A stretch of 64,000 nt of DNA from Octopus vulgaris (taxonomy: Eukaryota): the NCBI GenBank assembly GCA_951406725.2, contig OX597833.1, positions 46,748,001-46,812,000 on the forward strand. Direction: 5' to 3'. A program made the translations under genes and the position numbers. This document shows, in pieces, positions 29,722 through 31,670 of the stretch (position 1 is the stretch's first letter; every line of letters starts with the position of its first letter). The notes under the pieces are model-generated. The model did not search any database. It had not been told where the DNA came from and was given only the letters and a program-made list of their open reading frames with translations.

Positions 29722-30182
29722 ATATATGGGTACAGGATGTCACTGACAGTAAACAACATGAAATACGAAAAAAATGAGTTCAATACGCAAACATTGAGAG
29801 AAACAAATGGAAAACAGGACAAGTAACACAAAGAATGACCCCTTCATCAGTTGTTGGCTGTTTATCTACTCCTCATTTCGAGCACTGAACGACAATGTGA
29901 GTCTTCAAAGACAGTTGCTCCCATAAGTACCAAAATAAAATTTGGGATTTATGGAGGGTCAAAGATGGGAACAAAAACAGGACAGTGGAGACATACAAGG
30001 AAACTGAACGAAAGCAAACATGGAGGGTCGTTAGACCAGAACGAGGGTTGACAACTGATGAAGGGTCATTCTTTGTGCTACTTGTCCTGTTTTCCATTTG
30101 TTTCTCTCATTGTTTTCATATTGAACTCATTTATTTTCGTATTTCATGTTGTTTACTGTTCTGTTGGCGATGTCCTGTACGC

Positions 30183-30341: not shown

Positions 30342-30390
<49 letters not shown>

Positions 30391-30400
30391 GCATATATAT

Positions 30401-30813
30401 ATAATAGAAATATTAAAATTACTAAGTCTCTCTAAAAGAGATTACGGCAGCGTTACTGGAAATTAATTGTTATCGCCATATTAATATGGCAGTCTTATAG
30501 ATATAAGACTAAAAGCTGTCGCTAATTAGCTCCATGAGGCCATTGCCTTAAGATAGCTATTTGACACACAAACTGTGTCCATTATAACCTTCGAACAAGG
30601 GAGGTCAGCCGCTTCACACTGCTAGTCAGACAGCTACAGACGCGTTTCAGGGTATTTGCCCTTTGTCAATGTAGCGTAGTCAACCCAGCAGGTGTCGCCA
30701 CTGATCGTCTTTGTTCGAAGGTTTTATTTACCTAGTTTCAGTGGAATACATCCACTTGTTTTCAATAATAGAAATATTAAAATTACTAAGTCTCTCTAAA
30801 AGAGATTACGGCA
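30401..30813 (-). mobile_element. 364-nt retrozyme/Penelope-like unit with 49-bp terminal redundancy and hammerhead
   Basis: Direct repeat 30401-30449 = 30765-30813; HHR GCTACA-TTGACAA-AGGG..CCCT-GAAAC-GC-GTC-TGTAGC at 30675-30633. Confidence 0.75.
30633..30675 (-). ncRNA. Type-I hammerhead ribozyme motif, C3U/G8A compensatory core
   Basis: 6-bp stem I GCTACA/TGTAGC, 4-bp stem II AGGG/CCCT, palindromic stem III ACGCGT, GUC cleavage triplet. Confidence 0.7.
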
Positions 30814-31670
30814 TAATACATGACCATACCAGCGCAAACGTTTCTCTTGCCTGCCACTTCCAATGCTTCTTATGTCCAGCATTTCTCTCAGGGCGCTTAC
30901 ACTCTGTTGTATGTGCACACTGACATTACACATCCAGCGGATCATGCTAGCTTCATTTCTTTCAAGCCTACGCATATCCTCTGCAGTCACAGCCCACGTT
31001 TCACTGCTGTGAAGCATGGCAGTTCGCACACATGGGTCATACAATCTACCTTTCACTCTGAGCGAGAGACCCTTTGTCGCCAGTAGGGGTAGAAGCTTTC
31101 TAAACTTTGCCCAGGCTATTCTTATTCTAGTGGTGACACTCTCTGAGCATCCACCTCCATTACTAACTTAGTCACCTAGGTAGCGGAAGCTATCAACTAC
31201 TTCTAGTTTCTCCCCCTGGAGAATCTGTTTTCTGAGTATCTATGGTGTCTATTGCCCCTGTGCATCTGCTGCACACGAAAGTTATCTTCTCAGTTAGTTT
31301 TCCTTTGATGTTGCTGCACTTCTTATTTGTCCATAGCTTACACTGGGTACATCTACCTGAGTGGGTGTGTGATGAGTTTGCCTTCCTACTTACTATAACT
31401 TTGGTCTTTGCTACATTGACTCTAAGGCCTTTTGATTCTAAACCTAGCTTCCACACCCGAAATTTTATTTCTAGTTCTGGTAGCATAGAGGAGCTCCCAG
31501 GGCCAACCCATCTTGAATTCCTCTGTTATTGCTTGGAGGACTATGATGAATAAAAGGGGACTGAGAGTTGAACCTTGGTGGACCCCTACTGCTACCCGGA
31601 ATTCTTCACTATACTCGTTGCCAATCCTAACCTTACTAACGGCCTCTCTGTATAGGGCCTGTACAGCCCT
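30814..31670 (-). mobile_element. Degenerate RTE-clade LINE reverse-transcriptase fragment with inserted PHD-like finger
   Basis: VGVHQGSTLSPLLFIIVL..WELLYA(DD deleted), GLESKGLRVNVAKTKV, KGRLYD.CVRTAMLHSSETW..ERNEASMIRWMC; frameshifted. Confidence 0.85.

Follow-up and report, generated by a model that had tools for sequence, protein, structure and literature searches.

Our analysis indicates that the insertion at 30401-30813 of the window (the whole 64-kb stretch of Octopus vulgaris DNA under study) is a 5'-truncated, non-autonomous and non-coding retrozyme with a 364-nt unit, which would have been pasted into a (TA)n tract by the reverse transcriptase of a Penelope-like element (PLE) rounding a predicted monomeric RNA circle. 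We assign this reading a probability of roughly 0.7. The element belongs to a dispersed, young and protein-free family of more than 1000 hammerhead copies. The features that we checked in the sequence (a hammerhead in every unit, a tandem period of 362-364, no coding frame, no tRNA and a retained self-paired fold) would place it among the metazoan non-LTR retrozymes.

The window copy contains an exact 49-nt direct repeat at a spacing of 364 (Table 1), as the first-pass annotation had described. That annotation took the repeat for a terminal redundancy. Because inner ends vary freely across the family, with site-1 arms of 36 to 2015 nt, we regard the 49 bp instead as marking where this copy stopped. 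Their variable length, and the fact that the repeated sequence is the unit itself, also exclude an LTR or a target-site duplication. The minus strand would be the RNA sense and the plus strand the first cDNA. The single hammerhead of this copy is the sole descriptor match in the 64-kb window, one short of the two consecutive complete hammerheads that define an 'active' element under the rule of Li et al. With one ribozyme, the copy likely cannot release a monomer unaided, and this one-arm insertion is likely an inactive dead end. Outside the element, the arm's inner end cuts into a decayed LINE-type fragment, presumably RTE-like, for which Pfam gave no above-cut-off match. A second element with long inverted arms lies between TA tracts at 29727-30178. 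Its core arms (29800-29841 and 30063-30104) are 98% complementary, each arm carries CTGATGA, and the descriptor search found no complete hammerhead in it; it may be MITE-like or a two-armed PLE product.

Table 1 Features of the retrozyme insertion and its flanks (window coordinates)
Feature	Position	Strand	Basis
(TA)n target tract directly next to the fixed outer end	30352-30400	.	Window sequence
Single retrozyme insertion arm, 1.13 units of 364 nt	30401-30813	-	Sequence and genome-wide copies
Fixed start site 1, putative reverse-transcription start, used by the window copy	30401-30404	+	
49-bp direct repeat, first copy	30401-30449	+	
PLE-type tail	30401-30460		Interval between start sites 1 and 2
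Fixed start site 2 (unit 60-66), where the opposite arm of other copies starts	30460-30466	+	
Two adjacent hairpins; compensatory G-C to U-A change in the 30491-30510 stem	30475-30510	-	4 of 24 aligned copies
Perfect palindrome, created in this copy by a private mutation at 30524 and not general to the family	30521-30530	.	Subfamily comparison
Hairpin in which other lineages have replaced C-G with U-A (compensatory)	30563-30579	-	8 of 24 aligned copies
Long hammerhead-presenting rod; its closing helix is the outer stem 30586-30598 / 30711-30723	30586-30723	-	Folding, alignment
Type I hammerhead	30633-30675	-	Descriptor and sequence
Hammerhead stem I, 6 bp	30670-30675 / 30633-30638	-	
Predicted cleavage/ligation junction after GUC	between 30639 and 30638	-	Sequence
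Palindromic helix III, ACGCGU	30640-30645	-	
Hammerhead stem II, 4 bp	30659-30662 / 30649-30652	-	
Hammerhead loop 2, CAAAUA	30653-30658	-	
Hammerhead core UUGACAA (U3, A8)	30663-30669	-	
Highly conserved three-way junction across the unit boundary, containing start site 1	30730-30791	-	Alignment columns 39-100, 97-99.5% paired
49-bp direct repeat, second copy; a second round begins and is truncated	30765-30813	+	
Decayed LINE-type reverse-transcriptase fragment, flank	30814-31300	-	Translation

We recovered the intact hammerhead of the first-pass annotation, with its 6-bp stem I, GUC site and U3-A8 core, on the minus strand from 30675 to 30633, together with the GAAA strand. Helix III, which had gone unmentioned, comprises just 2 bp around the palindrome, as in dimer-type hammerheads, and the closing pair of stem II is A-U (A10.1-U11.1) in the window subfamily. 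Judging from these two features, self-cleavage of the monomer is probably slow in this subfamily; the core and stems are predicted to be competent. The energy model is unable to form the 2-nt helix III loop, and opening the core while keeping stems I and II costs 1.5 kcal/mol. Rfam did not detect the hammerhead here, either at gathering scores or at E values up to 10. Across the aligned hammerheads, U3 occurs in 172 of 174 and A8 in 177 of 178, a conservation that is partly built in, as some loci were chosen by hammerhead motifs. Variation falls at N7, in loop 2 and in the loop of helix III, and the last of these stays palindromic through a switch from GC to AU (133/132 versus 58/61).

The element is strongly structured. 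The linear 413-mer folds with a z score of -7.7 (100 shuffles), the hammerhead rod with -7.8 and the circle with -8.1 (40 shuffles), while the antisense circle reaches -8.4, so folding energy picks no strand. The outer stem around the hammerhead is exactly complementary, as previously noted; position 30711 within it is private to the window copy, with C in 56 of 57 subfamily loci. Three palindromes had also been proposed. The one at 30475-30490 is perfect, and 30491-30510 forms a 9-bp hairpin with a 2-nt spacer. The third (30521-30530) is perfect as well, but it does not extend to the family, since G occupies 30524 in 61 of the 62 other loci of the subfamily. In an alignment of 24 copies, 98.0% of cells were paired, which no shuffle equalled (0/500; significant). 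Both-side changes affected 5 of 78 pairs, including pairs in stem I and in two hairpins as well as the closing pair of stem II; 50 of 500 shuffles did as well, which is not significant, and the aligned copies are related. We infer that the PLE protein may recognize the three-way junction. On visual inspection, many arms stop or reverse direction just past it, at unit 29-38 (window 30429-30438 and 30793-30802), a possible stall site of the reverse transcriptase.

Searching the 2.8-Gb assembly, which shows one haplotype, returned 3075 candidate copies, 40 of which were scored; the best copies are 93-98% identical and spread over many contigs. The 43-nt hammerhead has 79 exact copies, a looser core pattern gave 1043 matches versus 13 for the reversed control, and two further motifs gave 1377 and 1376. 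Clustering 137 loci yielded five groups of five or more loci, that is, at least five subfamilies, with periods of 362-364 and arrays of up to ~7.6 units. Tandem multimers had been predicted by the first-pass annotation, and their presence, together with the type I hammerhead, covariation and the lack of a coding frame, bears out its description of the unit as retrozyme-like. The youngest subfamily has a 362-nt period and the longest arrays, up to ~7.6 units, and differs by 0.5% within loci and 2.3% between them; its stem II has G10.1-C11.1 (loci L243, L244 and L213). Other loci do count as active under the two-hammerhead rule, for example C15 and C24, with two exact hammerhead copies 364 apart. 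We found no coding frame inside the unit or in a 5-unit array, and no tRNA in the unit, which excludes a tRNA-derived SINE. Base counts put the GC content of the unit at ~42%. Family variants occur as contigs in four runs, which are only guessed to be RNA; contigs of this kind do not by themselves establish expression, RNA strand or circularity. Some copies (L054/L055, L217/L218 and L136) sit inside segmental or inverted duplications.

We then mapped the ends of 134 arms at 89 loci, which were picked by best-match or motif searches, so that the counts are biased. Half of the outer ends (67/134) fall at site 1 (unit 1-14 or 359-364) and 47/134 at site 62 (unit 60-66), leaving 20/134 elsewhere. 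TA-rich flanks accompany 57 of the 67 site-1 ends and 42 of the 47 site-62 ends. Insertions begin within (TA)n at one or the other of these unit positions, which lie ~60 nt apart, and many consist of back-to-back arms. Where two arms meet, 41 of 63 junctions have one end of each type, one has site 1 twice and one has site 62 twice, and 37 of 63 show an overlap of 1-7 nt. The first-pass annotation expected circularly permuted ends. Instead the outer ends are fixed, and a circularly permuted query returned the same two, which rules out random permutation. These fixed ends do not argue against a circle, given that there are multimers and that arms continue across the cut site; internal initiation by a PLE would explain them (PMC11167929).

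Two fixed starts, a tail, an inverted arm and a microsatellite target together make up a PLE insertion footprint. In published accounts, PLE copies form partial tandems with an inverted truncated arm and a tail at one end only (PMC8557442). A purified PLE is described as nicking both strands in AT-rich DNA, starting cDNA at two internal RNA sites whose interval becomes the tail, and extending both strands (PMC11167929). As far as these accounts go, the insertion anatomy of the retrozyme family matches the PLE pattern (PMC11167929, PMC8557442).

The genome also contains a candidate enzyme. Of the 6136 candidates from a GIY-YIG search, 150 were scored, and 16 of these fall within a 781-aa frame; it encodes RT and GIY-YIG domains together with a CX4CXXC linker, and on sequence would fit the Neptune or Nematis type. 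This PLE is young. Its copies bear pLTRs in direct or inverted orientation and terminate in (TA)n at two sites ~36 nt apart; their minimal hammerhead has the core UUGAUAA (U3-A8) and a palindromic helix III. Two young autonomous copies (L121:430-5672 and L124:244-5460) combine the 781-aa frame with an upstream frame of 250-480 aa, whose family assignment is not clear, tandem repeats rich in CCAAT and TGACGT-like boxes in the 3' region, and a U3-A8 minimal hammerhead. Across 30 GIY-YIG loci and 10 longer regions (150 of 6136 candidates scored), homology of the unit to PLE ends or pLTRs was not clearly above shuffles; the matches were weak and AT-rich, and the U3-A8 core was the sole shared feature. 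Our proposal of a PLE carrier therefore comes from the footprint and not from homology. Two off-family hammerhead-like matches (L195 and L196), with neither a PLE frame nor a convincing stem I, were rejected as partner PLEs, and an apparent PLE chimera (L136) is an inverted duplication of flanking DNA. At L079:1-292, the tails of a retrozyme arm and of an autonomous PLE face each other across one TA-rich stretch. A second PLE family, at L128:1821-4983, has 766-bp perfect inverted arms and no hammerhead by the pattern used.

What template did the enzyme copy? The predicted cut site is crossed 193 times, with 1 indel within 3 nt. Inner ends fall at unit 236-240 in 1 of 225 cases, versus ~3 expected if uniform; thus ends do not pile up at the cut site, and by eye none of 100 of 265 rows stops there. 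The clean crossings without a pile-up suggest that the templates were circles or uncleaved multimers. They also speak against a linear self-cleaved monomer on which the reverse transcriptase repeatedly jumped from 5' end to 3' end, since such jumps usually leave scars. This alternative, which we consider improbable, would yield homogeneous units from one molecule, and it could draw on one locus (L057:1501-1977) where the arm passes from one lineage haplotype to another somewhere in unit 223 to 262, an interval containing the cut site. That change, which also weighs against a single round template, may reflect a template switch or a mixed dimer circle.

The stronger competitor keeps the same family and the same PLE and replaces the circle with a long, linear, uncleaved multi-unit transcript, the hammerhead being slow or incidental. 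Such a template accounts for the fixed ends, the clean read-through and the multimers. In vitro, internal initiation is reported to work on linear uncleaved RNA, the main template, and PLE insertion to be unchanged by hammerhead mutants, so that cleavage is dispensable there (PMC11167929). Also in its favor are the weak helix III and the report that 8 of 9 dimers of Xenopus retrozymes stayed uncleaved in vitro (bioRxiv 10.64898/2026.07.22.740005). Nevertheless, we consider this reading rather unlikely. Truncating copies of linear arrays cannot regenerate long arrays, and a new mutation in a linear array would reach only some of the daughter units.

The variants show a different distribution. 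At sites seen at least 3 times per locus (145 loci, groups of at least 5 loci, with four ids of duplicated or rearranged loci dropped), variants occupy one copy in 166 cases, all copies in 76 and some in 19, and most of the 'some' variants listed are duplications, CpG sites or third alleles. Among the non-CpG variants of subfamily A, those present in at least 4 loci fill all tandem units in 45 of 58 cases, versus 5.3 expected if units were independent, and are shared by both arms in 52 of 63; within-locus rates of subfamily B, inflated by gap placement, were not used. The two variants that were searched assembly-wide each proved private to one locus, one occupying 4/4 units (L245) and the other 3/3 copies over both arms (L016), as judged with exact patterns, which miss mutated sources, in a one-haplotype assembly, so that a source array may have escaped the search. 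Private variants in all units point to a template that was a single round molecule, and on this sequence evidence we favor a single circular template. The earlier proposal of a more-than-unit-length cDNA from a circular RNA thus gains genomic support from the read-through and the all-unit variants.

Private variants in all units would also arise if inserted monomers were multiplied and homogenized at the DNA level, like a minisatellite, by slippage, unequal crossover or gene conversion, as proposed for some retrozyme arrays (bioRxiv 10.64898/2026.07.22.740005). Yet the arrays start at two fixed sites and end at random points, alleles are common to both orientations (52/63, and at L016), and the longest arrays occur in the youngest subfamily, with its 0.5% difference within and 2.3% between loci. 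We consider this explanation very improbable, and retain the circular template.

On the RNA strand, all-copy variants comprise 15 A>G and 3 U>C changes (p 0.008, polarity by majority, one of several comparisons), whereas single-copy variants comprise 37 A>G and 54 U>C; for sample-private all-copy variants the counts are 5 and 1 (p 0.22). The A>G excess fits A-to-I editing of the template, and could also reflect G-U wobble selection or wrong polarity. Tentatively, and as a possibility rather than an expectation, the family may be a viroid-like RNA circle whose evolution takes place in RNA. Twin-primed, rolling-circle reverse transcription by a PLE would return it to the genome, and a change acquired by one RNA molecule, such as an A-to-I edit, would then be fixed in all units of the resulting insertion.

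Our model suggests the following cycle. A multi-unit locus would be transcribed, and neighboring hammerheads would likely pair through the palindromic helix III and excise unit-length RNA, as predicted from the structure and from known metazoan hammerheads. A host ligase would likely close this RNA, by analogy with other animal retrozymes (PMC7229834). The endonuclease of the putative PLE would nick a (TA)n tract on both strands, leaving ends that each prime cDNA at one of the two fixed sites ~60 nt apart, in keeping with the ends and the pairing that we observed. The enzyme would pass the ligated cut site and travel a variable distance, up to ~7.6 rounds, as the observed read-through and lengths suggest. 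Finally, the arms would be joined by short microhomology, or one arm to flanking DNA, as in the observed junctions. The window copy would be a one-arm product that stopped 49 nt into the second round.

Our literature search on cephalopod retrozymes and octopus hammerheads, to which most subscription papers were closed, found no paper on this family. Metazoan non-LTR retrozymes have been described in mussel (350-390 bp) and axolotl (330/350 bp), circles have been demonstrated in coral, mussel and axolotl, and PLEs have been proposed as carriers (Cervera and de la Pena 2020, PMC7229834). As reported there, these elements share with the octopus family a short non-coding unit, tandem copies, a GC content <50%, strong self-pairing, a type I hammerhead whose stem I has 6 bp, whose stem II has 4 bp and whose palindromic helix III is weak, and PLEs in the same genome. 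Unlike them, the octopus family is wholly U3-A8, with A10.1-U11.1 in the window subfamily, and its insertions map to two fixed (TA)n starts with back-to-back arms; whereas their circles were demonstrated, those of the octopus family, and its cleavage, are predictions from genome sequence. Plant LTR retrozymes, with a type III hammerhead, fixed LTRs, PBS and PPT, are excluded by the type I topology and the copy-dependent length of the redundancy.

A recent preprint treats animal retrozymes as non-autonomous PLE derivatives, an origin supported by homology, since 24 of the 57 families in Xenopus resemble a pLTR in sequence (Li, Clavereau and Pollet 2026, bioRxiv 10.64898/2026.07.22.740005). By that account, the octopus family resembles the Xenopus retrozymes in co-occurring with PLEs and in forming monomers, dimers and multimers, and differs from those 24 families in that its unit has no pLTR homology detected in the sampled PLEs. 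With C-terminal GIY-YIG PLEs, as described, it shares partial tandems, an inverted truncated arm, a one-end tail, two internal RT starts and AT-rich or (TA)n targets; unlike them, it has no coding frame, a tail of ~60 nt versus 30-40, and many rounds of one short unit (PMC8557442, PMC11167929). The U3-A8 core singled out in the first-pass annotation is a known variant of PLE hammerheads: minimal hammerheads of Schistosoma mansoni PLEs carry it, and circles have been proposed there as templates of more-than-unit cDNA (PMC4209133). The octopus hammerhead has the same U3-A8 covariation and palindromic helix III, in contrast placed in a canonical-size hammerhead of a non-autonomous unit. Its CAAAUA loop 2 also occurs in the full-length ribozyme of Schistosoma (PMC2632901).

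The element class and the U3-A8 core were already known, and the octopus family adds another metazoan non-LTR retrozyme; its value lies in the insertion footprint. In the literature consulted, circles as templates and PLEs as carriers are hypotheses for the mobility of animal retrozymes. Here two start sites have been mapped, the genome also contains a young candidate enzyme, and certain mutations label individual template molecules; together these make the proposed route of a PLE on a circle directly testable in vitro. A reverse transcriptase that nicks DNA and rounds a small circle from a defined internal site would be useful as a tool.
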